The notes below the pieces were generated by a model. The model was not told the DNA's origin. It did no database searches and saw only the letters and a list, made by a program, of their open reading frames with translations. 64,000 nt of DNA, from positions 19,123-83,122 of the forward strand of contig CAWEHK010000054.1 in assembly GCA_963808625.1 (NCBI GenBank), in the 5' to 3' direction. This document shows positions 2,101 to 56,605 of this stretch, piece by piece. A program made the position numbers and the translations under genes. This DNA comes from an uncultured delta proteobacterium. Lineage in GTDB: Bacteria; Desulfobacterota; Syntrophobacteria; Syntrophobacterales; Syntrophobacteraceae. Within the stretch, counting starts at the first letter, position 1, and each line of letters opens with the position of its first letter.

Positions 2101-3066
2101 ATGACGCAAGAGTTAATGGCAATAGGAAAAGGAATTAAGGGGGCGCTGCCGGCGCTCTTTGCCCCTGACGCCAGGGCCGCTGAGCGAACGATAGAGTTTT
2201 TCACCGCACAGATCAGAAACCCCAACACCCGGAAGGCATACGCACGCGCGACTGGTGAATTCGCCGCATGGTGCACGGAACACGGGATCACCGCGCTCGG
2301 CCAGGTGCGGCCGGTCCATGTCGCGGCTTATGTCGAGGGCCTGCAGAAGGAAATAGCGGCGCCCTCGGTTAAATTACGCCTCGCCGCGATCCGGATGCTG
2401 TTCGACTGGCTGGTCGTCGGCCAGGTGATGCCGGTCAACCCGGCGAGCTCGGTCCGGGGGCCTAAACATGTGGTCAAGAAAGGCAAGACGCCGGTGCTCT
2501 CAGTCGATGAAGCGCGGGCGTTGCTCGATGTGATCGACACCGGATCAACGGTCGGCCTGCGGGATCGCGCGCTTATCGGCATCATGGTCTATACCTTCGC
2601 CCGCGTCGGGGCTGCTATCAGGATGCGCGTCGAGGATGTGTATGTGCAGGGCCGCCGTACCTGGGTGCGCCTGCATGAGAAAGGCGGCAAGCGCCACGAG
2701 ATGCCCTGCCACCACAACCTTGACGAATACCTGCAAGCCTATATCGAGGGGGCGCAGATCGCCACGGACGCGAAAGGCTATCTATTCCGGACGGCGCTCG
2801 GCCGCACAAAGCAGCTCTCCGAACGCCCCATGTACCAGGTGGATGTTTATCGCATGATCCGCCGGCGTGCCAAGGAGGCTGAAGTACGCACGAAAATTGG
2901 CTGTCACAGCTTTCGCGCTACGGGGATCACGGAATATCTCAGGAACGGCGGCAAGCTGGAGGTGGCACAGCAAATGGCGAACCATGAATCCGCGCGCACA
3001 ACCGGCCTTTATGATCGCCGCAACGATCAGGTATCGCTCGACGAGGTTGAACGGATTCTGATTTAA
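2101..3066 (+). CDS. Tyrosine recombinase / phage-type integrase
   Basis: 321 aa. Has an N-terminal SAM-like core-binding region, then ...GLRDRALIG..., HSFRATGITEYL and HESARTTGLYDRR (R..HxxR..Y catalytic pattern). Confidence 0.85.
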   Translation: MTQELMAIGKGIKGALPALFAPDARAAERTIEFFTAQIRNPNTRKAYARATGEFAAWCTEHGITALGQVRPVHVAAYVEGLQKEIAAPSVKLRLAAIRMLFDWLVVGQVMPVNPASSVRGPKHVVKKGKTPVLSVDEARALLDVIDTGSTVGLRDRALIGIMVYTFARVGAAIRMRVEDVYVQGRRTWVRLHEKGGKRHEMPCHHNLDEYLQAYIEGAQIATDAKGYLFRTALGRTKQLSERPMYQVDVYRMIRRRAKEAEVRTKIGCHSFRATGITEYLRNGGKLEVAQQMANHESARTTGLYDRRNDQVSLDEVERILI

Positions 3067-3140: not shown

Positions 3141-5996
3141 TTAAACACGGAATAACGCTGTTACTTCTTTATTCTTGCTTGTTTGGCAGCGAATAAGGTT
3201 TTTACGACAGACAACCGAATTGGGGTGCTCCGGACCGAGCGCCTTTTCAAGAATAGAAATGGCCCGCTTATATAGGAACCCGGCTTCGCCGTATTTCCCC
3301 TGTCCTTCGTAAACTAGCGCTAGGTTGTTGAAGCTGACAGCCAAATGGGGATGATCAGGCCCTACCGCCTTTTCACAGATCGCAATGGCTCGCTTGTAGA
3401 GAGGCTCGGCCTCGGTGTACCTGCTCTGGGAGCGGTAGAGCTCTGCTAAGTTGTTGAGGCTGGTAGCGACATCCGGGTGCTCCAGACCGAGCGCTTTTTC
3501 CCGAAGTGCAAGGCAACGCTTGTAGAGAGGCTCGGCGTCGATATATTTGCCCTGAGCGCTATAGCTCGCCGCCAGGTTGTTGAGGCTGGTAGCCAAATCT
3601 GGGTGCTCCGGACCGAGCAATTTTTCTAGGATTAAAAGGGAACGCTTAGAGAGGGGCTCGGCTTCGTTGTATTTGCCCTGAGCGAGGTAGAGCGCTGCCA
3701 GGTTGCTTAGGCTGGTAGCCAAATCTGGGTGCTTCGGACCAAACGCTTTTTCCCTGATCGCAAGGCAACGCTTGTAGAGAGGTTCGGCCTCGGTGTACCT
3801 GCCCTGGTGATAGTAGAGGATCGCCAAGTTGTTGATACTGATAGCCACATCCGGGTGCTCCAGACCGAGCGCTTTTTCCCGGACCGCGAAGGAACGCTTA
3901 TGGAGGGGCTCGGCCTCGGTGTACCTGCCCTGGCTGCTGTAGAGTTCTGCCAGGTTGCTGAGGCCGTTAGCCACATCCGGGTGTTCCAGACCGAGCGCTT
4001 TTTCTAGGATTAAAAGGGAACGCTTGTAGAGAAGCTCGGCGTCGATGTACCTGCCTTGGACATGGTAGAGCAGTCCCAGATTGTTGAGGCTGTTAGCCAC
4101 ATGAGGATGCTCCGGACCGAGCGCTTTTTCCCGGATCGAGAGGGAACGCTTGTAGAGAGGCTCGGCCTCAGCATACCTGCCCTGGGCACGGTAGAGCTCT
4201 GCTAAGTTGTTGAGGCTGGTAGCGACATCCGGATGCTCCGGACCGAGCGCTTCTTCCCGGATCGCAAGGCAACGCTTAAAGAGGGACTCGGCCTCGTTAT
4301 AATTGCCTTGGGCTAAGTAGCACGCTGCCAGGTTGTCGAGGCCTTGAGCCACATCCGGATGCTCCGGACCGAGCGCTTTTTCCCGGATTGAGACGGCACG
4401 CTTAGAGAGGGGCACGGCTTCGTTGTATTTGCCCTGAGCGCGATAGATCGCCGCCAGGTTGTTGAGGCTGTAGGCCAAATCCGGGTGCTCTGGACCGAGA
4501 ACTTTTCCCCGGATCGAGAGGGCACGCCTAGAGAGGGGCATGGCTTCGTTGTATCTGCCCTGAGCGAGGTAGAGCGCTGCCAGGCCGCTTAGGCTGGTAG
4601 CCAAATCAGGATGCTTCGGACCGAGTGCTTTTTCCCGAATCGAGAGGGCACGCTTAGAAGCGGTCTCGGCTTCGGTGTATTTGCCCTGGGCGCTGTAAAG
4701 CACTGCCAGGTTGCTGAGGCCGTTAGCCACATCCGGGTGCTCTGGACCGAGCGCTTCTTCTAGAATGGAGAGGGCACGCTTAGAAGCGGTCCCGGCTTCG
4801 GTGTATTTGCCCTGAGCGTGATAGATACCTGCCAAATTGTGGAGACCGATAGCTACATCGAGGTGCTCAGGACCGAGCGCTTTTTCCCGAATCGAGAGAC
4901 AACGCTTAAGGAGGGACTCAGCCTCGGTGTATTCGCCCTGGTCGAGGGACAGCACTGCCAGATTGTTGAGGCTGGTAGCGACATCCGGGTGCTCCAGACC
5001 GAGCGCTTTTTCCCGGATCGCAAGGGAACGCCTAAAGAGGGGCTCGGCCTCAGCGTATCTGCCCTGGGCGAGGTAGAGCGCTGCCAGATTGTTGAGGATG
5101 GCAGCCACATCCGGATGCTCCGGACCGAACGCTTTTTCTAGGATCGAAATGGAACGCTTATAGAGCGGTTCGGCTTCTCTATATTCCCCGGAACAGTACA
5201 ATGCTAAAGCGGTTTGATATAGCAACTCAGGAGCATCCGGCCTCAAAAGTAAAGATTTCTGATACCAACCCGTCGCGTCAGCATAGTGCCCAGCAAAAAT
5301 TTCAGTCTGGCCCCGGGCTTCATAGATTTTTGACAACTCAACTTCTTTAGTCTCTTGCGCCTGTCCTAACAGCTCTCTGGCATTCTTAAATTTCTTTTCT
5401 ACAATAGCTTTCAATGCCAATGTATACGGATCAGCATTTTCCGGTATCTGATTTGCAAATTCACGAGCTCTGGGTGAAGGCTCCCTCTGAAACCTTTCCA
5501 ATTGGCCTTGAAAAGAAGCAATCTGCACATCTCTAATTTCCAATTGCTTCCTTAATTCTTCCTCAATAATTCGCACGATTTTCCCGGTATCAGACACAGA
5601 CAACAATTCAAGTGAGTGAAGGAAATTTGAAAAAGCGTCAGGCTTTTTACCAGCTTCAGGAGCAATATCTTCAAATAAATTATTAAGCTTGAGAGCTGAT
5701 TCCCTCAGCTCGTCTATTATTACATCACGGCACAACCCAAGTTGTTTTTTTTCAGAAACGTCAACTCCAAGTCTTACCAGCTTTTGAACGTCAATCGTCT
5801 TACCTTGGGCTAACTTAAAAATCTCCCGCGCAAACTCATCTTCCATACACAGAACCAGCAGCTTATCAGAATGGCTTGTAAACGCCTCATGCACGGTCTC
5901 AGAAATTCTTTTTCTGAGCTGCTTATCCTGAATTGCATTCTTTATCCATGTAGATAAATGGCCAGTAAATGTTTTTAGAAAATCGTCTGGGATCAT
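3141..5996 (-). CDS. Large TPR-repeat protein (kinesin-light-chain-like TPR_10/TPR_12 units) with an unassigned ~260-aa N-terminal region
   Basis: 951-aa ORF. 16 consecutive 42-aa units of the form ALGPEHPDVAxSLNNLAxLYxAQGRYxEAEPLYKRSLAIREK. No NTPase, protease or nuclease motif seen in the N-terminal part. Confidence 0.85.
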   Translation of the reverse strand: MIPDDFLKTFTGHLSTWIKNAIQDKQLRKRISETVHEAFTSHSDKLLVLCMEDEFAREIFKLAQGKTIDVQKLVRLGVDVSEKKQLGLCRDVIIDELRESALKLNNLFEDIAPEAGKKPDAFSNFLHSLELLSVSDTGKIVRIIEEELRKQLEIRDVQIASFQGQLERFQREPSPRAREFANQIPENADPYTLALKAIVEKKFKNARELLGQAQETKEVELSKIYEARGQTEIFAGHYADATGWYQKSLLLRPDAPELLYQTALALYCSGEYREAEPLYKRSISILEKAFGPEHPDVAAILNNLAALYLAQGRYAEAEPLFRRSLAIREKALGLEHPDVATSLNNLAVLSLDQGEYTEAESLLKRCLSIREKALGPEHLDVAIGLHNLAGIYHAQGKYTEAGTASKRALSILEEALGPEHPDVANGLSNLAVLYSAQGKYTEAETASKRALSIREKALGPKHPDLATSLSGLAALYLAQGRYNEAMPLSRRALSIRGKVLGPEHPDLAYSLNNLAAIYRAQGKYNEAVPLSKRAVSIREKALGPEHPDVAQGLDNLAACYLAQGNYNEAESLFKRCLAIREEALGPEHPDVATSLNNLAELYRAQGRYAEAEPLYKRSLSIREKALGPEHPHVANSLNNLGLLYHVQGRYIDAELLYKRSLLILEKALGLEHPDVANGLSNLAELYSSQGRYTEAEPLHKRSFAVREKALGLEHPDVAISINNLAILYYHQGRYTEAEPLYKRCLAIREKAFGPKHPDLATSLSNLAALYLAQGKYNEAEPLSKRSLLILEKLLGPEHPDLATSLNNLAASYSAQGKYIDAEPLYKRCLALREKALGLEHPDVATSLNNLAELYRSQSRYTEAEPLYKRAIAICEKAVGPDHPHLAVSFNNLALVYEGQGKYGEAGFLYKRAISILEKALGPEHPNSVVCRKNLIRCQTSKNKEVTALFRV
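3180..5190 (-). repeat. Coding tandem array, 16 x 126 bp (TPR units)
   Basis: The same 126-bp unit recurs head to tail. Antisense ORFs in this span also show periodic peptides. Confidence 0.8.
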
Positions 5997-6029
5997 CCCA
6001 TTCCCTCTACTAAATCACTCATTGAGGTA

Positions 6030-6580
6030 TCACCGCCAAAGCCTCTCGAACCTGGCCGGATTGGCCGCCGTGTAAATAACGGTGTGCTGAATGTTCCTGT
6101 GCCCCAAGTAATCCTGAATCAACTGCGTGTCCGCGCCCTGGTCGGCCAGGGCAAATCAGCAAGCATGGCGCAGCATGTGCGGGTGGGCGGGCAGGGGCAG
6201 CCCGGCCCGCTCGCCATAATCGCGGATCGCAGCCCAAGCTCTCTTGCGGCTAAGAAGCGTGCGGCGCTCGCTTACAAAAAAAGCATCTGTTTGGAGCTTC
6301 ATTTTCGCACGGATCGCCAACCATGTCTTGATAACTTTGATTTTCATCCGCGCGGAGTGGGTGCGTGGTGGAGAGTCCTTTTTTGAGCCGCACAATGTGC
6401 AGCACGCGGCTTTCGGAGTCCACCTGGGAACGCTTGAGCCCGCACGCTTCGGAAATTCGCAAGCAGTGCCGGAACATCAAAACCAAAAGTCAGCGATCCC
6501 GAATTTCATTCCGGCTGCCCTTGGTCGCACAGATTAGCTTGTCCACCTCTATGGATTCAGCATCAGACAAGAGTCCTTAT
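6030..6580 (-). pseudogene. Dead paralogue of the FimB/FimE-like recombinase gene at 7089..7643
   Basis: Collinear with the intact copy (EVDKLI..KGSRNE.RDR, LMFRHCLRISEACGLKRSQVD, LKKGLSTTHPLRADE, HPHMLRHAC, LIQDYLGHRNIQHTVIYTA). It has TGA in place of the RDRC Cys codon, a frameshift after ADE, TGA in place of the Gly codon after HAC, and no start codon. Confidence 0.8.
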
Positions 6581-9147: not shown

Positions 9148-10725
9148 TTAACGTGTTGCGTCATTTTGTCCATTGCTCAGGAGGTCTCTGGTAATCTGGA
9201 CACCCGCTTTGTCTATTCCCAGCTCCGGCCAGCGGCGGGCAAGCTCGACCAGGATCCGGACGCCAAAACCGGTGGCGCCCTTGGGGGCGGCAAGGAGGTC
9301 TTTTTCCGTCCAGGCCGTGCCGGCGATGTCCAGGTGCACCCAGGGCACATCGTCAGGGACGAACTGTTTCAGAAAGATCCCGCCGACAATGGTCCCGGCC
9401 GACCGCTCGCCCACGTTCTTGAAGTCGGCGATATCGCTTTTAATATTCTCGAAATAAAGGTCCCACAAGGGGAGCGGCCACAGCTTTTCGCCGACCTGGG
9501 CACCGATATCCTGAATTTTCCGGACCAGGTCTTCATGGTTTCCCATCACTCCCGCCACCTGATTGCCAAGGGCCACGATGCAGGCCCCCGTCAGGGTGGC
9601 GAGATCGACGATTGCGGCCGGATGGGAGGTGAGCGCGTAGGTCAGGGCGTCACAGAGGATCATGCGCCCTTCGGCGTCGGTGCTGATGACTTCGATCGTC
9701 AGGTTGGCCATCGAGTTGATGACATCTCCCGGCTTGTAAGCCTTGCCGCCCGGCATGTTTTCCGTGCACGGGAGAATGCCGACGACGTGCCTCTGGACGT
9801 TGGCCCCACCCAGGATTTCGAAGGTGCCGAGGACGGCGGCGGCCCCGGCCATGTCCTGTTTCATCATCTCCAGTTTGGCGCTTGGCTTGAGCGAAATCCC
9901 TCCCGTATCGAAGGTGATTCCCTTCCCCACAAAGACCAGCGGCTTCTCCTGCTCCGTCCCGGCAGGAACGTGCTCCAGGACAATCACATAGGCCGGCTCC
10001 CGGCTCCCCTGGGCAACGGCCAGGAAGGCCCTCATCCCCATTTCCTCGGCGGCATTCGTGTCGATCACCCGGAGGTGGAAACCATGAGTCTCCGCCAGGG
10101 TGCGCGCCATGCTCACGATGAATCCCGGCGTCACCTGGTTGGCCGGGGCGGTAACCAGGTCGCGAGTCAAGATCACTCCCGAGACCACGGCATTGGCAAA
10201 GACACAGACCTGGCGCAACACATCGTCTGGCTCCTCCTCGGCCAGGAGCACGAGTTTTTCAGGGTAAGCGACAGCGTCAACATCTCTCGTCTTCAGGGCA
10301 TCGAAACGATACAGCCCGAGCGCTCCGGCAATAAGGACCTCTTCCAGCGGCGTTGCGGTCTCACAGGGCAGCCCGTCGAAAGCGGAGAGAGGAAGGGCAG
10401 CCGTGGTGAGCTTCAATTCGCGACATTTCCTCAGCCCCACAACGGCCGCCCCGCGCAGTTTGTCCATATCGAATTTTTCTGCCGGCCCCAGTCCCACCTG
10501 AACCACCCTGGAGATCCTGGCGTCGGCTGGTCCGTAGTGCACTGTAACGTCCTGGAATTTGCTGCGGAAATCGTTGAATGCGAGGGAGCCGGAAAGCCAT
10601 CCGCCGCTTTGTTCCAGCCAACGTTTAAAACCGGGGAGGAGTTCGGGGGACTCCTCAAAGCTGAAAAAGAGCACGGCATCAGCCTGCCAATCTGAGACAG
10701 GGGCGATTTGCCAGTCGACTTTCAT
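9148..10725 (-). CDS. pepA: Leucyl aminopeptidase, M17 family
   Basis: VGKGITFDTGGISLKP and NTDAEGR-type motif (VISTDAEGRMILCDAL). Start moved to the Met preceded by AAGGAGG (ATG 10725); the ORF is open to 10767. Confidence 0.9.
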   Translation of the reverse strand: MKVDWQIAPVSDWQADAVLFFSFEESPELLPGFKRWLEQSGGWLSGSLAFNDFRSKFQDVTVHYGPADARISRVVQVGLGPAEKFDMDKLRGAAVVGLRKCRELKLTTAALPLSAFDGLPCETATPLEEVLIAGALGLYRFDALKTRDVDAVAYPEKLVLLAEEEPDDVLRQVCVFANAVVSGVILTRDLVTAPANQVTPGFIVSMARTLAETHGFHLRVIDTNAAEEMGMRAFLAVAQGSREPAYVIVLEHVPAGTEQEKPLVFVGKGITFDTGGISLKPSAKLEMMKQDMAGAAAVLGTFEILGGANVQRHVVGILPCTENMPGGKAYKPGDVINSMANLTIEVISTDAEGRMILCDALTYALTSHPAAIVDLATLTGACIVALGNQVAGVMGNHEDLVRKIQDIGAQVGEKLWPLPLWDLYFENIKSDIADFKNVGERSAGTIVGGIFLKQFVPDDVPWVHLDIAGTAWTEKDLLAAPKGATGFGVRILVELARRWPELGIDKAGVQITRDLLSNGQNDATR

Positions 10726-10763
10726 AGGTCCCTCCTTGGGATGGATACTGAAAATATTATCTT

Positions 10764-10850
10764 TCACCGCAGAGACGCAGACGACGCAGAGGACACAGAG
10801 ACTTCCTCCTGAAGCTCTTTCTCTGCGCTCTCTGCGTCTCTGCGGTGAGA
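10764..10850. repeat. Intergenic palindromic element (TCACCGCAGAGACGCAGA ... TCTGCGTCTCTGCGGTGA)
   Basis: The two arms are reverse complements, read directly. Lies between pepA and the ThiF-like gene. Confidence 0.7.
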
Positions 10851-10861
10851 ATTTTCTTCCC

Positions 10862-11785
10862 TCAAAGCGGCATGAGTTCCATCACCCCGCTCTCCCCATC
10901 GAAAAAGAGGAGGCGCTCGGCATACGCAGGGTTCCTTCCTGCCAGCAGGCGAATGGCCTCAAAGGCCTGGAGACTCGCGATGACCGAAGGCGCCGGCCCC
11001 AGCACACCCATGGCGATTTCGGTTGGATCGCGAGACTTTCTCGTGCCGTAAATGGCTGACAAGTCGTGACGTGACCCCGGCATGAAGGTGCTGATCTGCC
11101 CCCACCAGCCGGTGGCGGCGGCATGAATGAAGGGAATTTCAAGACGGCGGGAAACTGCTGCGAGCAGAAATCGTGTGGGGAGATTATCCAGGGCGTCCAG
11201 GACCAAATCCATTCCGCGGAGCAAGTCGTCAGCGTTGCTCTCGACGAGGATTTCGGGGAAGGCCTCAACCTCGAGCAAAGGATTGATGGCACGGACCTGC
11301 TCCTCGGCGACGCGGGCTTTCGGCTGTGAGAGGTGCCGGGTATCACAGAGCCACTGCCGGTTCAAATTTGAGGGAGCGAAGGCATCGCCATCCACCAGCC
11401 GCAGCAGCCCGACGCCGACCCGGGCCAGCAGATTGACCAGGACCCCACCCAGGCCGCCGCAGCCGCAGATCAGGACGCTGCTTCGGCAAATGCGGGTTTG
11501 CTCGGCGAGGGTTAAGGCATCGAAATTCTTTACATACCGTAAGGGGACAATGCCGGCCTCCAAGGCGTCGATCTGTGCAGCTCGGGGATTGATGCCGTTT
11601 TCAAGAGACCATTCCAGGAGCTCCCGGTCCTCTATCACCAGCCGGGACAGGCCGTCTTCTTCCGTGCGATAAGCCCTGTCGATAAGCTTCAATGTGCCCT
11701 CGTCAAACCTTGGATGTGTCTTGCAGCATGAGCAAACAACCCAACCATAATGGCCTGACGCCGTAAGCTTTGAATCATTGCGCAA
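10862..11785 (-). CDS. ThiF/HesA/MoeB-family E1-like adenylyltransferase with an atypical ~90-aa N-terminal extension
   Basis: ICGCGGLGGVLVNLLARVGVG (Rossmann GxGxxG), ...DGDAFAPSNLNRQ... The only in-frame start is TTG at 11785, so the start is uncertain. Confidence 0.7.
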   Translation of the reverse strand: MRNDSKLTASGHYGWVVCSCCKTHPRFDEGTLKLIDRAYRTEEDGLSRLVIEDRELLEWSLENGINPRAAQIDALEAGIVPLRYVKNFDALTLAEQTRICRSSVLICGCGGLGGVLVNLLARVGVGLLRLVDGDAFAPSNLNRQWLCDTRHLSQPKARVAEEQVRAINPLLEVEAFPEILVESNADDLLRGMDLVLDALDNLPTRFLLAAVSRRLEIPFIHAAATGWWGQISTFMPGSRHDLSAIYGTRKSRDPTEIAMGVLGPAPSVIASLQAFEAIRLLAGRNPAYAERLLFFDGESGVMELMPL

Positions 11786-11899
11786 GCCGGGATATCTTTC
11801 AGAGGGGAATGACCGGAAACAACCCCCGTTTTTACTGTTATCATGGATTTAGATTTATTTTCAATAGCATCACGAAACCTCCGGCACTCAACACTCAAC

Positions 11900-11962
11900 A
11901 CTGAGTAAATTCGTCTCACTCAAACTCAGCCATTTCTGGATTGCTGTAACGTTTTGTTGCAG
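11900..11962 (+). promoter_or_regulatory. Bipartite upstream motif ACTGAGTAAATTCGT-N38-TTTGTTGCAG (copy 1)
   Basis: The same two words recur with the same 38-nt gap at 31656..31718. Both copies lie ~147 nt upstream of a -24/-12-type element. Confidence 0.5.
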
Positions 11963-12046
11963 TCGCAAGAAGCCCCTTTTCCCAAGCAACAGAGATTTAA
12001 TAAGAATATCAACCCACTCATCAATCCAAAGGTTGGCACTTTGTCT

Positions 12047-12062
12047 TGGCACAACTATTGCC
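12047..12062 (+). promoter_or_regulatory. Sigma-54 (-24/-12) promoter
   Basis: TGGCAC-AACTA-TTGCC matches the TGGCAC-N5-TTGC consensus with correct spacing. Lies 74 nt upstream of the ATG at 12136. Confidence 0.7.
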
Positions 12063-12135
12063 TTTATGGTCAAACCGGCCTTGTCCATTCCAGGTCAAGG
12101 CTTCCCTTCCCCATAACCCAAAAGGAGATAGTGGT

Positions 12136-12789
12136 ATGAGATGCTTTCGCGTATGTGTTGCAATGGTTAATTTGGTTGCTTTCCTCGCAGGATGCACCGC
12201 TCAAAGGCTGCCTGATTATTCGCCTCGGTCTGCGCAACAGTATCCCCACAAGGAGACCCAAAATGACTTGACGGTGGCGATTCATCCGATGACGCAAGAG
12301 AGCGAGGTTGAGCAGTATTTTGGGACGAACCTGTTAGCGGACGACATCCTTCCCGTTGTCATCGTGGTCGAGAATCGAAACCCGGAGCTGCACTTTGTCA
12401 TTCGAAAGGAGGAGATCAAGCTGGTAAACCAGAGTGCTCAGCGTTTTGACCGGTCGAGCAATCCTGAAACCGTCGGCTCCACGACTTCCGAGAAAACAGC
12501 TGGAGCTCTTGCTGGTGCGGGTCTCCTCATATTTCCGGTCCTTGGGTTTGTGGCCGTTGGAATGACTGGAAAGGTCTCCAGCGACGCGGAAGTGAGAAGG
12601 AATTTTGCCATGAAAGAGTTCCAGCAGACAACGATCTCGCCTGGGGACTCCAAGTCCGGTTTCGTCTATTTCCAACTGCCCAAACCGGCAGACAGTCCTG
12701 CACAATGGCGGTTTCAAATTCAGGCTATAGACGTGAAGAATAAAAGTTCGCTTCCGTTTATCTACGATTTTGATTGGAAGAGGAGGTAA
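12136..12789 (+). CDS. Lipoprotein A, uncharacterised
   Basis: AAAGGAGA 7 nt before the ATG. MRCFRVCVAMVNLVAFLAGC is a signal peptide with a lipobox. A hydrophobic stretch (AGALAGAGLLIFPVLGFVAVGM) occurs mid-protein. Confidence 0.7.
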   Translation: MRCFRVCVAMVNLVAFLAGCTAQRLPDYSPRSAQQYPHKETQNDLTVAIHPMTQESEVEQYFGTNLLADDILPVVIVVENRNPELHFVIRKEEIKLVNQSAQRFDRSSNPETVGSTTSEKTAGALAGAGLLIFPVLGFVAVGMTGKVSSDAEVRRNFAMKEFQQTTISPGDSKSGFVYFQLPKPADSPAQWRFQIQAIDVKNKSSLPFIYDFDWKRR

Positions 12790-12791
12790 TA

Positions 12792-13403
12792 ATGACAGCC
12801 CGACCGAAGGTATGGAATATTTCATTGATGATGGTGGCCATTGGCCTTCTTGCTATGGGTTGTACTACTATTTATGACGTACCCAAGCAACCCGTCGTGT
12901 TTCCCGCAGCCGACAAGGTAAATATGATCGTTGAGCTTCGCCTTACTGACGCACTCTGCAACGCGACATGGGTAAAACACCATTTGGGTGATACTTTTAT
13001 TTTGCCAATTGGAGGGCCGTTATGCATGAACTCCGAGGCAGTCGCCCGTTCCGTCTTCACCGATGTAATCGTCACTAAAGATGCTACTACCTCCGGCACG
13101 ACCGGTGCTGATGCCGTCCTCACACCAAGCCTCGCCGCAATCGAACGCGATCGGCCAGTTACGGGTTTTACAGATCAGACCACCTCCATTTTGTTCAATT
13201 GGTCACTCAACGACCCCAATGGCCTGCCGATCTGGGTGACGTCGATTTCCGGAGACGGGAAAGGCCCAATGCACAATCTCGGCTCTACGGATGCGGCATA
13301 CGAGCAGACCGAGAAGGTGCTTCAGGATGTATTCCGAAAATCATACCGTGAGATGACGAGTGCTCCCTCGATCCGTGAGTTTGCAGCCACTCTGCACAAA
13401 TGA
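12792..13403 (+). CDS. Lipoprotein B1, uncharacterised
   Basis: AGGAGG 5 nt before the ATG. MTARPKVWNISLMMVAIGLLAMGC carries a lipobox. Paralogue of 13768..14379. Confidence 0.7.
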   Translation: MTARPKVWNISLMMVAIGLLAMGCTTIYDVPKQPVVFPAADKVNMIVELRLTDALCNATWVKHHLGDTFILPIGGPLCMNSEAVARSVFTDVIVTKDATTSGTTGADAVLTPSLAAIERDRPVTGFTDQTTSILFNWSLNDPNGLPIWVTSISGDGKGPMHNLGSTDAAYEQTEKVLQDVFRKSYREMTSAPSIREFAATLHK

Positions 13404-13569
13404 AAATCATGCGTAGTGGTCGGCTCTCGCTTTGACACGGGAATGACTTCCAAAGCATCTCCCATGCTCACGCGTGCGCCGCCTCAACGCGTGTCTCGGG
13501 GGGCGTCGTAGGGGGAGAGTATGGGATTCGTCGATCTCTTCAGGCGTGGTGCCAAAAGTGGCGCGAGTA

Positions 13570-13749
13570 GAGAAACTGAATAACAGTGAAAGAGTTCCAG
13601 CAGACAACGATCTTGCCTGGAGAATCCAAATCCTGGTTCGTGTATTTTCAACTCTCCACGATGGCAGACAGCCCTTCACAATGGCGGTTCGAGATTTAGG
13701 CTGTAGACCTGAAAAATAGAAACTCACTTACGTCTACCAACGTCTTTGA
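13570..13749 (+). pseudogene. Degenerate duplicate of the 3' end of lipoprotein A
   Basis: Aligns with 12595..12791 (..GAAAGAGTTCCAGCAGACAACGATCT..CACAATGGCGGTT..TTGATTGGAA..) but contains an in-frame TAG and indels. Confidence 0.7.
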
Positions 13750-13767
13750 TTGGAAAAGGAGCTGATC

Positions 13768-14379
13768 ATGACAGTCCAACCAAAAGTATGGAATATTTCA
13801 CTCATGATGGTGGCTATAGGCTTTCTTGCCATGGGTTGTACTCATATTTATGATGTACCCAAGCAACCCGTTGTGTTTCCCGCAGCCGACAAGGTTAATA
13901 TGACCGTCGAGCTTCGCCTCACTGACGCCCTCTGCAACGCGACGTGGGAAAAACGGGGAATGAGTGACACCTTTATTTTGCCCATTGGAACCCCACTGTG
14001 CATGAATTCGGAGGCCGTCGCCCGTTCTGTGTTCACTGATGTCATAGTCACGAAAGATACGGCTGCCTCCCGCACGACCAATGCCGATGCTTTGCTCATA
14101 CCAAGCTTCGTGGCCCTCGAACGCGACCGGCCGGCGACACTTGGCTCACTTCAGACTACTTCGATCCTATTCAATTGGTCGCTCAACGACCCCAATGGCC
14201 TGCCGATCTGGGTGACAACAATTTCTGGAGACGGGAAAGGCCCCATGCGCCATCCCATGTTTAAGGATGCGGCTTACGAACAAACTGAGAAAGCACTGCA
14301 GGATGTATTTCAAAAATCATTCCGTGAGATGACGAGTTCTCCTTTAATCCGTGAGTTTGCAGCTAATCTGCACAAATGA
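13768..14379 (+). CDS. Lipoprotein B2, uncharacterised (paralogue of B1)
   Basis: MTVQPKVWNISLMMVAIGFLAMGC carries a lipobox. Roughly four fifths of residues are identical to B1 by eye. Confidence 0.7.
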   Translation: MTVQPKVWNISLMMVAIGFLAMGCTHIYDVPKQPVVFPAADKVNMTVELRLTDALCNATWEKRGMSDTFILPIGTPLCMNSEAVARSVFTDVIVTKDTAASRTTNADALLIPSFVALERDRPATLGSLQTTSILFNWSLNDPNGLPIWVTTISGDGKGPMRHPMFKDAAYEQTEKALQDVFQKSFREMTSSPLIREFAANLHK

Positions 14380-27436: not shown

Positions 27437-27647
27437 CGGTCCAAGGAACCGCAGTTGCACCCGCTGCTCCTCAATAAGGCGCTTTTTCGTGAGAACCCCG
27501 CATAGGTCACCTCAACCAATCGGATTTCTGGTTGTCGATCACTCTCCGAAATTCCAGCAACTAGGTATGTTCCGACCTTGAGTCTTGATGTGGGCAGATT
27601 ATCCGTTGCTATGAGCCTAAGTCAAGGTCGGTCATCGCCTCAGAGAG

Positions 27648-29585
27648 TCAAAACTGATAATTCACCCCGCCCTCGACCCACCGTCCGGGCTGGGGATAGG
27701 TGTAGCGGAGGAGATAACCGGTGTTGGTCAGGTTGTGGACGGTGAAAAAGATGCCCGGCTTTCCGGCGCAGGCGGGGACAAAGGGCAGGCTTGACCTTGA
27801 GCATGTAATCGAAGACGAAGACCTGGTCCCGGGTTTCGGGAACGCTCGAGTTGTTGTAGACATACCGGCCAATGAGGGAGTGGGTCATCCACTTGTAGGT
27901 GTAGGATGCCGATGCATCGTAGAGAATGCGCGGCACATCCTGGATGATTTCATCGGTCTCGTCGTTGCGGACATCGATGAAGCTCCCGCCGAAGGACAAC
28001 CCCAACCCCCAGGGCAGGGTCGCCGCGATTCTCCCCTCGACGCCCTGCCGGGTAGCCTCATCGAGGTTTTCATACCTGCGGAATTGCCCATTCTCGAAAA
28101 ACGTGGGCACGAGGAGGTTGTTGACATCGGCCCGGAACAGGGTGAGTCCCAATTTCAGAAACTGGAACATTCTGAAGTCGCCGCCAACCTGGTAGTTGAC
28201 TGCCGTTTCCGCCTCGAGGTCCTTGTTGCCGTGAAGCGGATCATTCACCCAGAGCGCCGGGGGCGCCGAAAAGCCGCGGGCGATCTGCGCCCGCAGCAGG
28301 GCGTCGTTATCGAGAAGGTGGTAGACGATGCCGCCCGAGGGGCTGACTTCCGAACCGAAATCGAGGTTGTTGTCGTAGCGGAGACCGGCATTGAAGGCGA
28401 ATTTTCCCAATTCATAGGTGTCGTTGGCATAGAGCGCCCAGTTTCCCGAATCGTACCTGGTCAGGAGGGGACTGACCCAGGGAGCTCCAGTCGTAGTAGC
28501 CCCAATCGCCGTCAAACCCGACCAGAAAGCGATTGGCTTGCCGGTCGTAGCTCATCCGGGCCGAAGCCCCCAGGGTCTGCTGGAGGTAGTCGAAGTAGCT
28601 CAACTTCGAATCGGGGAAGATGAAGTCGTAGGTCGAGGTGTAATTCCTGATGACGGCCTTCAACGGTAAGATTGAGGCCATCCGCCAGCAAGGTCTCGAA
28701 CTGCAGGCGCTGATAGCTGCGCTGCTGGGAGGTGTCGGCAAAGAAGCCTCGGGGCGGCCAAACCGGGATGGGCGTCTCGGTGTGACCGCGATCGAAGCTG
28801 TAGATGAAGTTGAGGCGGCTCGCCTCCCCGGTGAGGAAGTTCAGCTTGGTGTAGACCGCATCCTGCCGATAGTCATTGTTGGGCATGATGCCGTCACTGT
28901 TTTCATGGGTCGCCGAAACAAGGTAGCTGAAGCGCTCGACGAACCCGCTGACCGTGGCCCTCCCCCGCGCCGTGTTGAAATCGCCATAGGAGGCCGTGGC
29001 ATCGACGGAGACGGGCTTGCTCAGGTCGGGCTCGCGGGTGATGATGTTGATCACCCCGCCCAGACCCGACCCCCAGGCCGACGAAGCCGCTCCCTGGTAG
29101 ACTTCGATGCGCTCGATATTGGCAACGGGAAGAAAGGAGAGGTCCGTCAGCGGGTTGGCGAGCTGATTGAGCGGCACACCGTCCTGGAATACCGCCACAT
29201 GCCGCACCTCCGAACCCTGAATCGAGGCCACTGACAAGCTGCCGGGGCTGCCGCCGTTGAATTCGACGTAAACCCCCGGCACGTACTGGAGCACTTCGCC
29301 GACGTTGTTGACCGGGATCTTTTCGATTTCCTCCCGGGTGATGACGGAGACGTTCGCCGCCACATCCGATTTGGGCGTGGCCTGGCGCGTGTAGGAAAAG
29401 ACCAGCTCCTCCCGCTGGCCGGCGCCCGGTCCCGAACCCTGGGTTGGGGTCCCCGCCGACGAGGCGTCGGCAGATGAGTCTCCGCTCAATTCCTCAGCAA
29501 ATCCCAGGTTTGCTCCGAAGGACATAAAGCACAGGAGACATAAAAAAAAGATCAGGCCGCTGCACCCTGGCGCGAGCCCACACAA
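27648..29585 (-). pseudogene. TonB-dependent outer-membrane receptor, at least 3 frame breaks
   Basis: Plug region: VSVITREEIEKIPVNNVGEVLQYVPGV...IERIEVYQGAASSAWGSGLGGVINIITR. Barrel pieces lie in 28412..28741 and 27640..28515. The true C-terminus ...FTVHNLTNTGYLLRYTYPQPGRWVEGGVNYQF* is in the 27648..27872 frame. The start is uncertain (TTG ~29585). Confidence 0.7.
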
Positions 29586-29605
29586 ATAACTGTCCGGATT
29601 CGTTT

Positions 29606-29669
29606 CGTCATACCGGCGAAAGCCGGTATCCAGGTAGCGTTCTGGATTCCCGTTGTCACCGGAATGACG
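29606..29669. repeat. Head-to-head pair of REP family A hairpins
   Basis: CGTCATACCGGCGAAAGCCGGTATCCAG followed by CTGGATTCCCGTTGTCACCGGAATGACG. The same pair architecture occurs at 50725..50796. Confidence 0.7.
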
Positions 29670-29802
29670 CGTCAGGTCTATGGTCACTTTGTTCTGTGGC
29701 GTTGTACTTTGTGCTGTGCTTGCTGGAGCATTCTCTTTCGGAGAACGCCAACAGAAGGCGATGCCGGGCATCGGGACGGGCGGCATCGCAGCAGCAGGAG
29801 CT

Positions 29803-31170
29803 TCAGGTCTCTTTCGCATCATCAATGCCGTATCCCTTCATTTTTTCGATCAAGGTCTTGCGGTTTATGCCTAGCAGATCCGCGGCCCGGGACCGGATGC
29901 CCTGCGTCCGTTTCAGGGCCAGCGTGACGAAACACCGCTCGGCGTCTTTCAGGTTCAGGTCCGGTATGGCGCCAAACTCCTCCTGGTCTTCTTTGAACGG
30001 CAGGTGGCTGGTGGTGATGATGGTGGAATTGCGGCAGGTGATCACCGCCCTTTCGATGACATTCATCAGCTCGCGGACGTTTCCCGGCCAGTCGTAATTC
30101 TGGAGGGCCAGCATGGCGCCGCCGGAAATCTCGGTAATCGGACGACGGTAGGTCTGAGTCAATTTCTTGAGGTAAAACTCGGCAAGGTCCGGAATGTCGT
30201 CCCGTCGGCTGCGAAGCGGTGGAATGTCAATGACGTAGAGGTTGAGACGGTACAGAAGGTCTTTCCGAAAGCGCCCGGCGGCCACCCGCTCTTCGAGGTC
30301 CCGGTTGGTGGCGGCAAGGACGCGAAAATCCGAACTTATCCTGGAAGTTCCCCCGACCCGCATGAAGCTCTTGGTCTCGATCACCCGGAGGAGCTTCGCT
30401 TGAAAGGCGGCTGAGGCCTCGCCGATCTCATCGAGGAGGATCGAACCCTCGTTGGCCAGTTCGAGGAAGCCTTTCCGGAGACCGACGGCCCCCGTAAAAG
30501 CACCCCGCTCATGCCCGAAGAGCTCGCTTTCGAGCACCCCTGGCGCGAACTTGGCGCAGTTGATCTCGAAGAAAGGTTTGTCCCGCCGCTCACTGCGGTT
30601 GTGGATATCCTGAGCCACCAGTTCCTTGCCGGTTCCGGTCTCGCCACTGATCAGGACCGGCACGGGAAGCTCCGCCACCTCCTCGATCTGCTCCCGTACT
30701 CGCTGCATGGCCGCAGAGCGCCCGATGATCGCGACCGGCCCCTTCGCTTGAAGCGACCGCTCCCGGCTGAGATGATCGAGCTGTTTCAGCAGCTTGCGCT
30801 TCTCGAGCGCCTCGCGAAGGGTCGTCCAGAAGAGGTCCAGTTTATCGGTGAGCGGCTTCTCGAAGTAGTGAAAGGCCCCCTGCTTCACGGCCCGAATGGC
30901 CTCTTCCGTGGAACCGAACGCGGTGATCATGATCACCGGGATGTCCGGGCGGCTGTCCTGGACCCTGGTGAAAAGCTCCGTTCCCGTCATCCCCGGCATC
31001 TGCACGTCCGAGATGATCACGTCGACGGAGGTCTCTTCCAGGACTTCGAGGGCATGGGAAGCAGAGGCCGCAGGAATGACCTCCAGCTCATGAGCCGCAA
31101 ACTCCGGAGCGAACAGCTCCAGAAAAGCCGCATCATCATCTACCAGCAACACCTTGGGCCGGGTTGTCAT
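29803..31170 (-). CDS. Sigma-54-dependent response regulator (NtrC family: REC + AAA+ + Fis-type HTH)
   Basis: VLLVDDD...DVQMPGMTG (REC), GETGTGKE (Walker A), HERGAFTGA (the GAFTGA sigma-54 contact loop), and a C-terminal ..RAADLLGINRKTLIEKMK HTH. Confidence 0.9.
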   Translation of the reverse strand: MTTRPKVLLVDDDAAFLELFAPEFAAHELEVIPAASASHALEVLEETSVDVIISDVQMPGMTGTELFTRVQDSRPDIPVIMITAFGSTEEAIRAVKQGAFHYFEKPLTDKLDLFWTTLREALEKRKLLKQLDHLSRERSLQAKGPVAIIGRSAAMQRVREQIEEVAELPVPVLISGETGTGKELVAQDIHNRSERRDKPFFEINCAKFAPGVLESELFGHERGAFTGAVGLRKGFLELANEGSILLDEIGEASAAFQAKLLRVIETKSFMRVGGTSRISSDFRVLAATNRDLEERVAAGRFRKDLLYRLNLYVIDIPPLRSRRDDIPDLAEFYLKKLTQTYRRPITEISGGAMLALQNYDWPGNVRELMNVIERAVITCRNSTIITTSHLPFKEDQEEFGAIPDLNLKDAERCFVTLALKRTQGIRSRAADLLGINRKTLIEKMKGYGIDDAKET

Positions 31171-31224: not shown

Positions 31225-31500
31225 CGTCATTCCCGCATGCTCCTGGCGGGAATCCAGCAACAAGGCCAGGATGCCCACCTTCACGGGCATAACGACCGGA
31301 ATTGAGACAGTCCTGTGTGCGGACCTTCGCTCGTGCGCTCGTTCCCAAGCTCCAGCTTGGGAACGCAGGCCGGAAGCTCCGGCTTCCGCTGCCTCTTGGG
31401 TATCAGATGGCGTCCGCACATCCGGCGAAGCTGGAGCTTCCAAACCGGTGGGTTCCCAAGCCAGAGCTTGGGAACCAGCTTCAAACCTGCCGTCCGAAAA
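31225..31500. repeat. Cluster of intergenic palindromes (REP family A copy plus family B GTTCCCAAGC..GCTTGGGAAC hairpins)
   Basis: 31225..31257 CGTCATTCCCGC...GCGGGAATCCAG. 31339..31364 CGTTCCCAAGCTCCAGCTTGGGAACG. 31449..31475 GGTTCCCAAGCCAGAGCTTGGGAACC. Also GGAAGCTCCGGCTTCC and GAAGCTGGAGCTTC. Confidence 0.75.
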
Positions 31501-31655
31501 TATTCGCTCGCTTCTCTCCGGAAGCAACGCTTCCTCCGAAAAATCGAAGATTTCACCATTTAAGAAGTGCTAAACGGCAGTTCAGGGGTGTTTTCTTCTA
31601 GCAGAGACATCCGGAAGTGTAAATTTGAAAAATACCTGTTCCTGGAACTTTTCTA

Positions 31656-31718
31656 ACTGAGTAAATTCGTAACAGATAATTCTCCCCAAATCGCCATGTG
31701 CGAGGTGATTTGTTGCAG
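31656..31718 (+). promoter_or_regulatory. Bipartite upstream motif ACTGAGTAAATTCGT-N38-TTTGTTGCAG (copy 2)
   Basis: Same words and same gap as 11900..11962. Lies 148 nt upstream of the -24/-12-like element at 31804. Confidence 0.5.
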
Positions 31719-31803
31719 CCGGATGAACAAGGGCTGGCAACGCCGCAATTGCTTACTCAATCGATTCAAAGGCTTATCATGGAAATTACAGCCAACGCGA
31801 ACC

Positions 31804-31819
31804 TGGCATGATTCTTGGT
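31804..31819 (+). promoter_or_regulatory. Candidate sigma-54 promoter (near-consensus)
   Basis: TGGCAT-GATTC-TTGGT has correct GG spacing, but the -12 element is GG instead of GC. Supported mainly by the shared upstream architecture and the adjacent divergent NtrC-type gene. Confidence 0.35.
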
Positions 31820-32027
31820 TATAGGAGACTTCAGTCATCCTACAACGCGGAGGTCTTCCTCCCTAATCGTTGCTGCGTTCCCGAGAGCGCATCAACCGGG
31901 GCCCGGCTTGATGCCGGGCCTCACCCATCCTTTTAGGCATTGGAAATGAGCAGGAATTCAGCCAGGAGGTTTGAGCTCGAGGCAATCACCATCAATCACT
32001 CAACCAATCATGAAGAAGGAGTACGTT

Positions 32028-33758
32028 ATGAAAAAGGTGAACATGAAAACCACAATTCGAATGAGGAGGAGAGGAATGAAGAGGACAGGATTGCGTTGCG
32101 GGCTGTTCGTTGCATTTCTTTCACTTTTGCTGTTTGCCGGGGCCTTTCCAGTTGCTGCTACGGTCATCTTCAGTGATGACTTCGAGACGGGACAGGGAGA
32201 TTGGAACATTGAGAATGGTATCTGGGAAATCGGGACTCCCACTTCCGGGCCGAATGGGTGTCACGGCGGCGCAAACTGCGCAGGTACGGTTCTGAGTGGA
32301 AATTATCCAGATTGCACTGATAGTCGCCTCATCAGTCCGCCGATTACCCTCCCTGCCGTGACCGGCCATGAGGAGATTCAACTCCGGTTCTGGCACTGGT
32401 TCTACTACCAGCCGGGTGGGGCTGATTGGGGCGTCGTTCAGATCTCTGCGTATAATCCTGACACTCTCAAGTGGTCAGGATGGGCGGATATCAGCGGCGC
32501 TATTTGGGAGATCGGTGCTGTCTGGTCATTGAGAAATGTTGATCTGACCGCTTATGCCGGGAAAAGGGTGAAAATCGCATTTGCCCATGTCGCCGACTGC
32601 GGTTCTACCTATCCAGGCTGGTACATCGATGACGTCCAAGTGGATAAGTATGTCCCTGTCTTCAGTGGTGACTTCGAGGGCGGCTGGGGAGACTGGTCTG
32701 CTGACAACGGCGTCTGGGAAATCGGGACTCCTACCGTTGGGCCGAAGGCGTGTTATGGGGGATCGAACTGTGCCGGCACAGTTCTAAATGGGAGTTATCC
32801 GGACTGCACCGATAGTCGCCTCATCATGCCTACAATGACACTCCCCACTGTCACCGGCGACAAAGAGGTTATCCTGAGGTTTTGGCACTGGTTCTATTAT
32901 CAACCCGGGGGCGCCGATTACGGGGTCGTTCAGATCTCTGTCAACAATGGGAGTGGGGTGTGGTCGAAATGGGCAAATCTAAGCAATCCTATCGTGGAGA
33001 TTAGTAGTAAATGGTCACGAAAGGATGTTGATCTGACCGCTTATGCCGGGAAAACGGTGAGGATCGCATTTGTCCATGTCCCCGATTGTGGATCCACGTA
33101 TGCTGGCTGGTACATCGATGACGTCTACATCGCGCCTCCACCGTGTCCGCTCCCAATCATTACATCTTTTGCTGCAAAGCCAACCTTAGGACCGTCTCCG
33201 TTACACGTTAAGTTTACCTGCAAGGCAACAGATTCAGATGGAACCATCGAGAAATACCAATGGGATTTTGGTGATGGTAACCAGAGCGAGACGGACAATG
33301 GAACAATTCAACACACCTACCCAAAGGATGGTGTCTACAAGCCAAAGGTGACGGTGGTTGACAATTGTGGCGGCAGTACCTCGAAGTCCACTAAGATCAT
33401 GGTGGGAATTAATCCAGAATTGACTGGAAAGGCTGAAGAATACCAGTTTTCTGACTTAACCAAGACCATCAACATAAAATTCAGGGTTACCAACTCTGGC
33501 AACCTTGCTGCAGGTCCTTTCAAAGTGAGCTTCCATCTTTCGACCAATGGTACTACGCCGCTTGCTGCGTTCAAGGAGCTTCAAGTTGATGCTCTCGGAG
33601 TCAAGCAGAGCACGCTCCTGGATGTTGACCAGACCTTCACAAGTTCAATTTATGGCAAGTATATTCTTATCTACATCGACCCCAAGCATGAGCTTCCGGA
33701 GCTGGATGACACAACCAATGGGACACGAATAGTCATCCAGAACATGACCACCAAATAG
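32028..33758 (+). CDS. Secreted protein: two ~165-aa Cys-containing repeat domains + PKD domain + CARDB-like C-terminal domain
   Basis: Signal peptide ..MKRTGLRCGLFVAFLSLLLFAGAFPVAA. Internal duplication (FSDDFETGQGDWNIENGIWEIGTP...GWYIDDVQV versus FSGDFEGGWGDWSADNGVWEIGTP...GWYIDDVYI). PKD-like YQWDFGDGN...YKPKVTVVDNCGG. The start could be 31971, 32028 or 32076. Confidence 0.8.
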   Translation: MKKVNMKTTIRMRRRGMKRTGLRCGLFVAFLSLLLFAGAFPVAATVIFSDDFETGQGDWNIENGIWEIGTPTSGPNGCHGGANCAGTVLSGNYPDCTDSRLISPPITLPAVTGHEEIQLRFWHWFYYQPGGADWGVVQISAYNPDTLKWSGWADISGAIWEIGAVWSLRNVDLTAYAGKRVKIAFAHVADCGSTYPGWYIDDVQVDKYVPVFSGDFEGGWGDWSADNGVWEIGTPTVGPKACYGGSNCAGTVLNGSYPDCTDSRLIMPTMTLPTVTGDKEVILRFWHWFYYQPGGADYGVVQISVNNGSGVWSKWANLSNPIVEISSKWSRKDVDLTAYAGKTVRIAFVHVPDCGSTYAGWYIDDVYIAPPPCPLPIITSFAAKPTLGPSPLHVKFTCKATDSDGTIEKYQWDFGDGNQSETDNGTIQHTYPKDGVYKPKVTVVDNCGGSTSKSTKIMVGINPELTGKAEEYQFSDLTKTINIKFRVTNSGNLAAGPFKVSFHLSTNGTTPLAAFKELQVDALGVKQSTLLDVDQTFTSSIYGKYILIYIDPKHELPELDDTTNGTRIVIQNMTTK

Positions 33759-37756: not shown

Positions 37757-37827
37757 GGAGTAGGGAGTAAGGAGTAGGGAGTAAGCAGTAAGGAGGAGGG
37801 AGCAGGGAGTGACGAGTGGGGGGGAGG
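37737..37827. repeat. Heptamer microsatellite, 13 units of GAGTAGG/GAGTAAG
   Basis: Units counted directly. The first units encode the last residues and the stop codon of the SagB-type gene. Confidence 0.9.
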
Positions 37828-38126
37828 GCATCATGAGTGGGTGCAAGCAAAACTGGGAGCTGGGAGTCGCATAAGGCTATGCCGATAGTAGAGCCGGGAT
37901 AAGGAAGGGAAATCAGTGCGATGCTGAGAAAATACCCGTGTGTGTGCAGAGCAAGTCAGTCGAAATCCACAGTGGTTTTGGTGGGCACGGTAAAGCTGTG
38001 CCCACCCTACGCATAGATCGTGGCGCGGCGCATCTACCTGCGCCCACCGAAACCCTACAGGCCATTCGCAATCAGGTGCTGGCCACCGGGGGACGACCGC
38101 CGGCTCCTACTTCAAATTACACCCAT

Positions 38127-38259
38127 CCTCACTTCCTACTTCTTACTTCCTACTCCCTGCTCCCTACTTCTTACTCCTTACTGCCTACTTCCTACTTCCT
38201 ACTCCCTATCCCCTACTCCTTACTGCCTACTTCCTACTTCTTACTCCTTACTGCCTACT
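38127..38259. repeat. Heptamer microsatellite, 19 units of YCCTACT/YCTTACT (reverse complement of the 37737 array)
   Basis: Units counted directly. Ends 4 nt before the xth stop codon. Partial 28-bp super-periodicity (TCTTACT CCTTACT GCCTACT TCCTACT). Confidence 0.9.
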
Positions 38260-38263
38260 CTTT

Positions 38264-40331: not shown

Positions 40332-40357
40332 TTGGCAGGCTGGAAAGCCTGCCCCAC
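40332..40357. repeat. REP family C hairpin (GGCAGGCTGGAAAGCCTGCCCCACAC)
   Basis: Same element as both arms of the palindrome at 56547..56605. Confidence 0.7.
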
Positions 40358-56546: not shown

Positions 56547-56605
56547 TGTGGGGCAGGCTTTCCAGCCTGCAAGCCTCCAGGCAGGCTGGAAAGCCTGCCC
56601 CACAC
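56547..56605. repeat. 59-bp palindrome made of two inverted REP family C units
   Basis: TGTGGGGCAGGCTTTCCAGCCTGC-AAGCCTCCA-GGCAGGCTGGAAAGCCTGCCCCACAC, between the hdrA stop and the hdrC start. Confidence 0.8.

Follow-up and report, generated by a model that had tools for sequence, protein, structure and literature searches.

A two-part motif that occurs twice in the window (the whole stretch of DNA analysed, 64 kb in length) is most likely bound, as a pair of sites, by the neighbouring NtrC-type activator. According to the comparison of the window with related sequences, each copy would be an enhancer composed of two 19-bp direct sites for the enhancer-binding protein (EBP) encoded at 29803-31170, and the two modules formed in this way would act on sigma-54 promoters located downstream of them. 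We estimate the probability of this reading at about 0.7. The original prediction had described the motif as upstream activator sequences for one EBP, and the conserved geometry of the site pair, together with a matrix derived from orthologous loci only, argues for activator sites. The coordinates of the features are given in Table 1.

Table 1. Features of the two modules and of their surroundings in the window.
Feature	Position	Strand	Description
Surroundings of copy 1	10862-11785; from 12136	-; +	ThiF/MoeB-type gene on one side, lipobox-protein operon on the other
Site A, copy 1	11901-11919	+	CTGAGTA-AATTC-GTCTCAC; holds most of the 15-mer
Site B, copy 1	11944-11962	+	CTGTAAC-GTTTT-GTTGCAG; near-perfect palindrome; last 10 nt are the 10-mer; 43 bp after site A
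Promoter, copy 1	12047-12061	+	TGGCAC-N5-TTGC, consensus -24/-12 sigma-54 element; ~75 nt before the ATG at 12136
Lipoprotein operon	12136-14379	+	ORFs 12136-12789, 12774-13403 and 13750-14379; presumed target of copy 1
Surroundings of copy 2	29803-31170; 32028-33758	-; 	EBP gene on one side, PKD/CARDB gene on the other
EBP gene	29803-31170	-	NtrC-family response regulator with REC, AAA+ with GAFTGA, and Fis-type HTH; candidate binder of the sites
Site A, copy 2	31657-31675	+	CTGAGTA-AATTC-GTAACAG; orthologous to site A in L165-L170, L005 and L006
Site B, copy 2	31700-31718	+	GCGAGGT-GATTT-GTTGCAG; 43 bp after site A
Promoter, copy 2	31804-31818	+	TGGCAT-N5-TTGG, -24/-12-like; two mismatches, non-consensus -12
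Candidate structured RNA	31828-31934	+	~105 nt, three hairpins; putatively sigma-54-dependent

Occurrence of the Two-Part Motif

The pattern ACTGAGTAAATTCGT-N38-TTTGTTGCAG is present in exactly two copies in the 64-kb window, at 11900-11962 and 31656-31718, with the identical 38-nt gap that had been claimed. The 15-mer ACTGAGTAAATTCGT is located at 11900-11914 and 31656-31670, and the 10-mer TTTGTTGCAG at 11953-11962 and 31709-31718; neither word has a further exact copy in the window. From the start of the 15-mer to the TGG of the -24/-12 element, copy 1 measures 147 nt and copy 2 measures 148 nt, which reproduces the earlier figures.

In 64 kb, chance alone should give approximately 2.3 pairs of positions with a common exact 15-mer, and the window does contain several unrelated pairs of this kind, in line with the earlier remark that a single 15-mer match could be accidental. 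For the 15-mer and the 10-mer at one fixed gap, the chance expectation is 2.4e-6 (5e-4 if any gap of 0-200 nt is allowed), and the combination is not plausibly due to chance, as was also predicted. In addition, a -24/-12 match with no more than two mismatches falls within 1 nt of a given offset with a probability of ~1.5e-3. The 38-nt spacer and the flanks of the two copies show identity at the random level, and the likeness of the copies runs slightly past the 10-mer, as TTTGTTGCAG-yCGsAwGAA.

It is very improbable that the motif is left over from the duplication of a segment or from a mobile or REP-type element and has no function as such. The 15-mer and the 10-mer are identical between the copies at 25 of 25 positions, which is more than binding sites typically share, and the genome does carry REP-like palindromes. 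However, there are just two copies in 64 kb, with spacer and flanks unlike each other, and no mobile-element signature was found. The 15-mer and the 10-mer do not form an inverted repeat, and the REP-like elements, CTGGATTCC...GGAATGACG, differ from the motif in sequence. Moreover, the position and geometry of the motif are kept in orthologous loci that share 72-86% protein identity and whose neutral DNA has become scrambled. The poor conservation of the spacer had been taken as a sign of binding words and not of a duplicated segment; this view gains from the recurrence of the sites, in diverged form, in orthologous loci whose spacers and flanks are unconserved.

An explanation at the protein level was considered as well. 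Both copies of the motif lie, in the same frame, at the 3' ends of minus-strand ORFs that begin with ATG (11888-12088 and 31653-31838), and the motif might reflect a conserved small protein, which we regard as hardly credible. The ORFs, of 61 and 66 codons, share ...F[LI]RLQQ-x7-W-xx-LS-x-TNLLS with Leu-Ser and Arg kept by different codons, and the tblastn comparison between them gives E = 0.003. Nevertheless, the alignment of the two ORFs has no homologue among 5.8 billion proteins; the wobble-degenerate bipartite pattern, which covers the exact form, has 0 matches in genome_contigs and metagenome_contigs, the source genome being outside both collections; and the frame is broken by stop codons in the closest relative, L165, and also in L006 and L167. 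The small-ORF reading was rejected for these reasons. In addition, ORF 1 would overlap the consensus sigma-54 promoter. Judging from the alignments, the protein likeness of the two ORFs is a by-product of conservation at the DNA level.

In public assemblies, automatic gene calling has put short hypothetical ORFs into the intergenic DNA ahead of the EBP gene in two other loci, namely 2697-2999 (-) in L170, which covers the enhancer (site A at 2747), and 5766-6035 (+) in L167. The short ORFs called in the EBP-upstream regions of L170, L167 and the window are probably spurious.

The EBP Gene and Its Orthologous Loci

The EBP contains the Pfam domains Response_reg, Sigma54_activat and HTH_8. These domains are directly recognisable in the protein, with GAFTGA at residue 223 and a conserved HTH. 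The closest relatives of the EBP are encoded by Syntrophobacteraceae MAGs, and the DNA of the window belongs to a Syntrophobacteraceae relative.

The comparison set consisted of eight other EBP loci (L165-L170, L005 and L006), seven of them distinct, with EBP identities of 72-86%. Two loci were taken from the genome collection (L005, 73%; L006, 72%), and L085 of the metagenome collection is nearly identical to L006. Three loci were obtained by protein search and from the corresponding contigs (L165, 86%; L166 and L167, 76%), and three were fetched later (L168, 78%; L169, 77%; L170, 74%), after the site matrix and the RNA model described below had been fixed. Upstream of the EBP, every one of the eight loci has the 43-bp site pair, a -24/-12 element 146-148 nt on and the conserved RNA segment; pair, promoter and RNA were thus seen in all three loci that had played no part in fixing the models.

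In eight distinct orthologous sequences, the most frequent base averages 0.76-0.77 in the two 19-bp sites and 0.50-0.56 in the 24-nt spacer, the upstream flank and the promoter-ward stretch. By the measure of this alignment, the conservation of the sites against unconserved surroundings is a clean phylogenetic footprint. The site pair is linked to the EBP gene in every orthologous locus, the other neighbours changing; the order of EBP and a following TonB-dependent receptor gene is conserved among these loci. The more distant EBP relatives L007-L010 and L086-L088 (54-62% identity) have neither the site pair nor the RNA. They carry divergent -24/-12 promoters, and GTAAC/GTTAC palindromes are found upstream of these promoters in L010 and L087.

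The TonB-dependent receptor of the window is divided between two ORFs, one for the Plug and one for the barrel (27640-28515 and 28512-29825, minus strand). The same split is seen in several orthologous loci (L165, L166 and L167), and L170 has a single gene of 620 residues. The split may reflect a frameshift or an assembly feature that recurs, or the receptor may truly be encoded by two genes.

Structure of the 19-bp Element

The two-word motif is real, but its words are not two different ones, as had been supposed: each is a fragment of one copy of a single 19-bp element, which is present twice. The 15-mer corresponds to positions -1 to 14 of element A and the 10-mer to positions 10-19 of element B. 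The consensus of the element is nYGRGTR-RnWTn-GTWRCRG, with G3, G13, T14 and C17 invariant. In the window and in all orthologues, the two sites have the same (direct) orientation, and exactly 43 bp separate the start of site A from that of site B. Comparison of the site A and site B profiles gives a similarity of 11.2 versus 5.1 +/- 1.1 for permuted columns, which identifies them as the same element. The palindromic self-similarity of the element is weak (6.3 versus 4.4 +/- 0.9, P = 0.02). The architecture of the sites, their conservation and their fixed geometry are direct observations.

A matrix was built from orthologues only, using ten sites from L165, L166, L167, L005 and L006, and scored on ~128,000 window positions. 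In this analysis, 31657 ranked 1, 11901 ranked 2 and 31700 ranked 6; 11944 ranked 18 on the minus strand and 27 on the plus strand. Since 11901 is not orthologous to any training site, its rank is real evidence for one recognition code at both loci. Pairs of positive matrix matches 42-44 bp apart were found in the window only at the two modules, save one pair in which site A of copy 2 is counted again, its partner scoring near zero. Among 15 other loci scanned outside the window, the site pair was detected only at EBP loci, plus one weak match in L009.

Two kinds of candidates were set aside. The palindrome model CTGTAAC-N5-GTTACAG, prompted by L010 and L087, has site B of copy 1 as its sole window match with one mismatch or none; because it fits this site only, the model was dropped and the asymmetric 19-bp model was adopted instead. 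The single high matrix scores at 6004 (-), 45061 (+) and 53333 (-) have neither a 43-bp partner nor a promoter and were therefore treated as chance.

The -24/-12 Elements

The element of copy 1 had been called a consensus sigma-54 promoter, and it is an exact match, the only one with zero mismatches in the window. It starts 146 nt after the start of site A and is kept in the relatives X1 and X4, described below. The element of copy 2 is a less clear case. Two-mismatch matches to the -24/-12 consensus number 55 in the window versus 67 expected by chance, so the element at 31804 is not significant on its own. What speaks for it is its position, which is held in the orthologues: site A and the TGG are 146-148 nt apart in 10 modules (the orthologues and both window copies). 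Against it stand its two mismatches and a -12 that departs from the consensus and varies. Site B ends 85 nt before the -24 TGG. As far as the aligned loci can tell, the distance between element and promoter is held to within 1 nt in the different lineages, as would be expected if looping or phasing constrained it.

The aligned elements of the orthologues read TGGCAC..TTGG, TGGCAT..TTGC, TGGTAT..TTGC, TGGTAT..TTGT, TGGCAC..TTGA and TAGCAT..TTGC. With the window counted in, four loci have TTGG at the -12 of the RNA promoter and three have TTGC; TTGT and TTGA occur once each. The GG of the -24 and the G at -13 are kept among the orthologues of this promoter, though L005 reads TAGCAT. Variation of the -12 C is unusual for sigma-54 promoters.

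Inspection by eye found an IHF-like sequence, WATCAANNNNTTR, 27 nt before the -24. It is perfect in L165 (AATCAATGGCTTA), has one mismatch in the window at 31764-31776 (ATTCAAAGGCTTA) and is absent from the other orthologues.

A conserved TGTAAAG block is located ~35 nt upstream of site A, at 31595-31623 (minus strand), and is the same in L005, L006, L166, L167, L168 and L170. Read on the strand of the EBP gene, the block gives TTTACA at a distance of 17 nt from TAGAAG or TATCCA, and it is probably the sigma-70-type promoter of the EBP operon. A promoter of this type ~35 nt from site A implies that the enhancer could also autoregulate the EBP.

The sites might be real regulatory sites bound by another protein, either a different EBP whose gene lies elsewhere in the genome or a factor controlling this sigma-70-type promoter of the EBP. 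We consider this unlikely. The conserved TTTACA-N17 block does adjoin site A, and through it the sites could serve autoregulation; non-dyad sites are unusual for Fis-type HTH dimers. However, the sites hold their distance to the -24/-12 element and not to the EBP start, which varies from ~220 to 490 nt. Moreover, the same pair stands at the lipoprotein promoter, where there is no EBP gene, while in the orthologous loci the linkage to the EBP is the one that is kept as other neighbours change. The adjacent EBP remains the preferred candidate for binding the sites.

The Structured RNA beside the EBP Gene

A segment downstream of 31818 is common to all EBP orthologue loci and appears to encode a structured RNA. 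It consists of a 5' single-stranded AUCCUAC, hairpin 1 with the stem GGAGG/CCUCC, hairpin 2 of 8-12 bp and a GC-rich 3' hairpin. The window RNA has an MFE of -47.7 kcal/mol (z = -4.4). Compensatory changes are observed at 9 of 30 consensus pairs in six sequences and at 10 of 30 in eight distinct sequences. This covariation was reached by none of 500 shuffles, and sliding the partners abolishes pairing. Structure and covariation were observed directly in the alignment. The covariance model finds L168, L169 and L170, which were outside its building set, at E values of 1e-14 to 1e-28, and it detects one RNA copy per locus, only beside the EBP. The search of the RNA and the window against Rfam 15 gave nothing at the gathering threshold and only noise at E <=10. 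Among public sequencing runs, none was listed as holding 31400-32400.

The gene that follows the RNA differs between genomes. The window and L165 have PKD/CARDB in this place. In L005, L006, L166, L167, L169 and L170 it is taken by a PAS histidine kinase gene, the product of which is presumably the cognate sensor; in L168, the neighbouring gene is convergent, and the RNA extends into its 3' end. The window contains no close orthologue of the PAS histidine kinase. These differences indicate that the conserved product of the EBP-side promoter is the RNA and not specifically PKD/CARDB, and the RNA is most simply regarded, on the evidence of these alignments, as a stand-alone small RNA. L005 and L006 have a U-run directly after the 3' hairpin; in the window and L165 it comes ~10 nt later, and L166 and L167 lack one. 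As the 3' hairpin does not have a U-run everywhere, PKD/CARDB may be reached by read-through, and it is at best a read-through target. The original prediction had united the lipoprotein operon and PKD/CARDB in one regulon. Its first part is favoured by the high matrix rank of site A at the lipoprotein promoter; its second part gives way to the RNA as the conserved target.

The Lipoprotein Operon and Copy 1 in Relatives

The lipoproteins of the operon have the lipoboxes LAGC and AMGC and match no Pfam or NCBIfam family. Only 8 lipoprotein homologues were found in the protein database, and exact-protein look-ups of the lipoprotein and of the PKD protein matched no record. The ORFs 12774-13403 and 13750-14379 are a tandem duplication of one lipoprotein gene, with ~83% nucleotide identity and a 350-nt gap.

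Upstream of the lipoprotein orthologues L001, L003 and L004 (41-69% identity), there is no motif, site pair or -24/-12 element, which suggests that membership of the operon in the regulon is lineage-specific. Sequencing runs covering 9200-12800 provided only low-coverage DNA contigs of relatives, which were used for the analysis of conservation. The relatives of copy 1 (X1 and X3-X6) are soil, wetland and wastewater metagenome contigs that cover parts of 11830-12270 at 85-95% identity. They keep TGGCAC/T-N5-TTGC. In X5 and X6, the right half of element A is changed from GTCTC to GTTAC; in X1, the substitution 11959 G>A turns GTTGCAG of element B into GTTACAG. The changes in element A of X5 and X6 and in element B of X1 go toward the consensus. 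Element A reads TGAGTAAGTTTGTTAGAC in X3 and CTGAGTACATTCGTTA in X4.

In X5 and X6, which represent wetland populations, the likeness to the window begins 27 nt before site A, at 11874; farther upstream, their sequence is unrelated to it. The module of enhancer, promoter and lipoprotein gene consequently has a different left neighbour there.

Other Features of the Window

REP-like palindromes of the form CTGGATTCC-(hairpin)-GGAATGACG are located at 14444, 21744, 22624, 29661, 34913 and 50788 on the plus strand and at 31225 on the minus strand. Two of the seven matches (29661 and 34913) lie inside listed ORFs, and the elements include a 28-nt exact pair at 21725 and 50769. One of the REP-like elements is in the long leader of the EBP gene, and an element of the same kind is present upstream of the EBP in L006.

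The 951-codon ORF 3141-5996 (-) contains ~15 tandem copies of a 126-nt (42-residue) repeat. Arrays of 7/14-nt units (GGAGTAG...) and of their complement (CTACTCC...), at 37729-37826 and 38117-38273, flank 37827-38116, and these inverted micro-repeat arrays overlap the start of ORF 37938-38441. In addition, a 26-nt exact repeat, GGCAGGCTGGAAAGCCTGCCCCACAC, is found at 40334-40359 and 56580-56605, 16 kb apart. No tRNAs were found in the window.

Proposed Mechanism and Comparison with Known Systems

We infer the binding protein, the sigma-54 dependence, the transcript ends and the signal from the features described above. In the proposed mechanism, the response regulator encoded at 29803-31170 would be phosphorylated by its kinase. 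The phosphorylated EBP would bind elements A and B, which are expected to lie on the same helix face, 43 bp being four helical turns, and would then oligomerise. With the sites ~170 and 127 nt upstream of the presumed transcription start, the EBP would contact sigma-54 RNA polymerase at the -24/-12 element through DNA looping, and this contact would drive open-complex formation. The EBP-side module would thereby drive the ~105-nt RNA 31828-31934, with possible read-through into PKD/CARDB, and the second module would drive the lipoprotein operon from 12136.

A similar arrangement is known from Desulfovibrio vulgaris Hildenborough. In this bacterium, many EBP genes are divergent from sigma-54 promoters, most promoters lie within 100 nt of the nearest site, and the response-regulator EBPs DVU0653, DVU0679 and DVU1419, together with the one-component DVU2359, control adjacent non-coding RNAs (Kazakov et al. 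2015, PMC4641369). EBP regulons of this bacterium are also treated by Rajeev et al. 2011, in so far as that work is cited in PMC4641369. The system described here likewise belongs to a deltaproteobacterium, has an NtrC-family EBP gene adjoining a sigma-54 promoter with upstream sites and a non-coding RNA target beside the EBP gene, and would form a small regulon with envelope or exterior functions. The likeness is one of arrangement, and no counterpart of the site sequence or of the RNA could be checked. The spacing is different: compared with most D. vulgaris promoters, which are less than 100 nt from a site, here site B ends 85 nt and site A starts 146-148 nt from the TGG.

LuxO-Qrr of Vibrio and GlrR-GlmY of Enterobacteria are systems in which a response-regulator EBP activates a neighbouring sigma-54-dependent small RNA. 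They share with the present system an activator of the REC-AAA+-HTH type, several upstream sites, a small RNA gene that directly adjoins the regulator or kinase operon on its upstream side and points away from it, and the possibility of autoregulation via the shared intergenic region. In contrast to Qrr and GlmY, the RNA described here has no Rfam relationship, and neither family is found even among the weak matches. Against the NCBIfam models of LuxO and GlrR, the EBP stays far short of the cut-off scores, and the site sequences are different. A further difference is that a protein-coding operon, that of the lipoproteins, would also be a direct target.

The NtrC enhancer at glnAp2 of E. coli and Salmonella consists of 17-bp dyads ~32 bp apart, and classical NtrC-type sites are dyads. 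By analogy with glnAp2, two strong sites on the same helix face, 100-150 bp upstream of the -24/-12 element, would act through oligomerisation and looping. Unlike the glnAp2 dyads, the sites described here measure 19 bp, are mostly asymmetric and follow each other as direct repeats at an interval of 43 bp.

Implications

The arrangement is an ordinary kind of bacterial switch, seen here in an uncultured syntroph, and the finding leaves the understanding of sigma-54 activation unchanged. Syntrophic Deltaproteobacteria have many uncharacterised sigma-54 activators, and these bacteria are hard to grow and hard to study genetically. For one such activator, the analysis provides a concrete, testable regulon, made up of a model of the sites, two promoters as targets and one candidate small RNA. 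The site model combines a 43-bp pair with a -24/-12 element 146-148 nt beyond site A and is suited to scanning MAGs for additional targets, and the RNA, which is outside Rfam, could be added as a family.

The broader proposal is that the RNA represents a new family of stand-alone, sigma-54-dependent small RNAs of a Syntrophobacteraceae clade, wired to the EBP via the unusual direct 43-bp enhancer with its asymmetric sites and a promoter with a variable -12 C, and that the EBP also drives lineage-specific lipoproteins; in our assessment, the chances of this being so are evenly balanced. If true, the circuit would be a Qrr/GlmY-like control of the envelope or surface in uncultured syntrophs.
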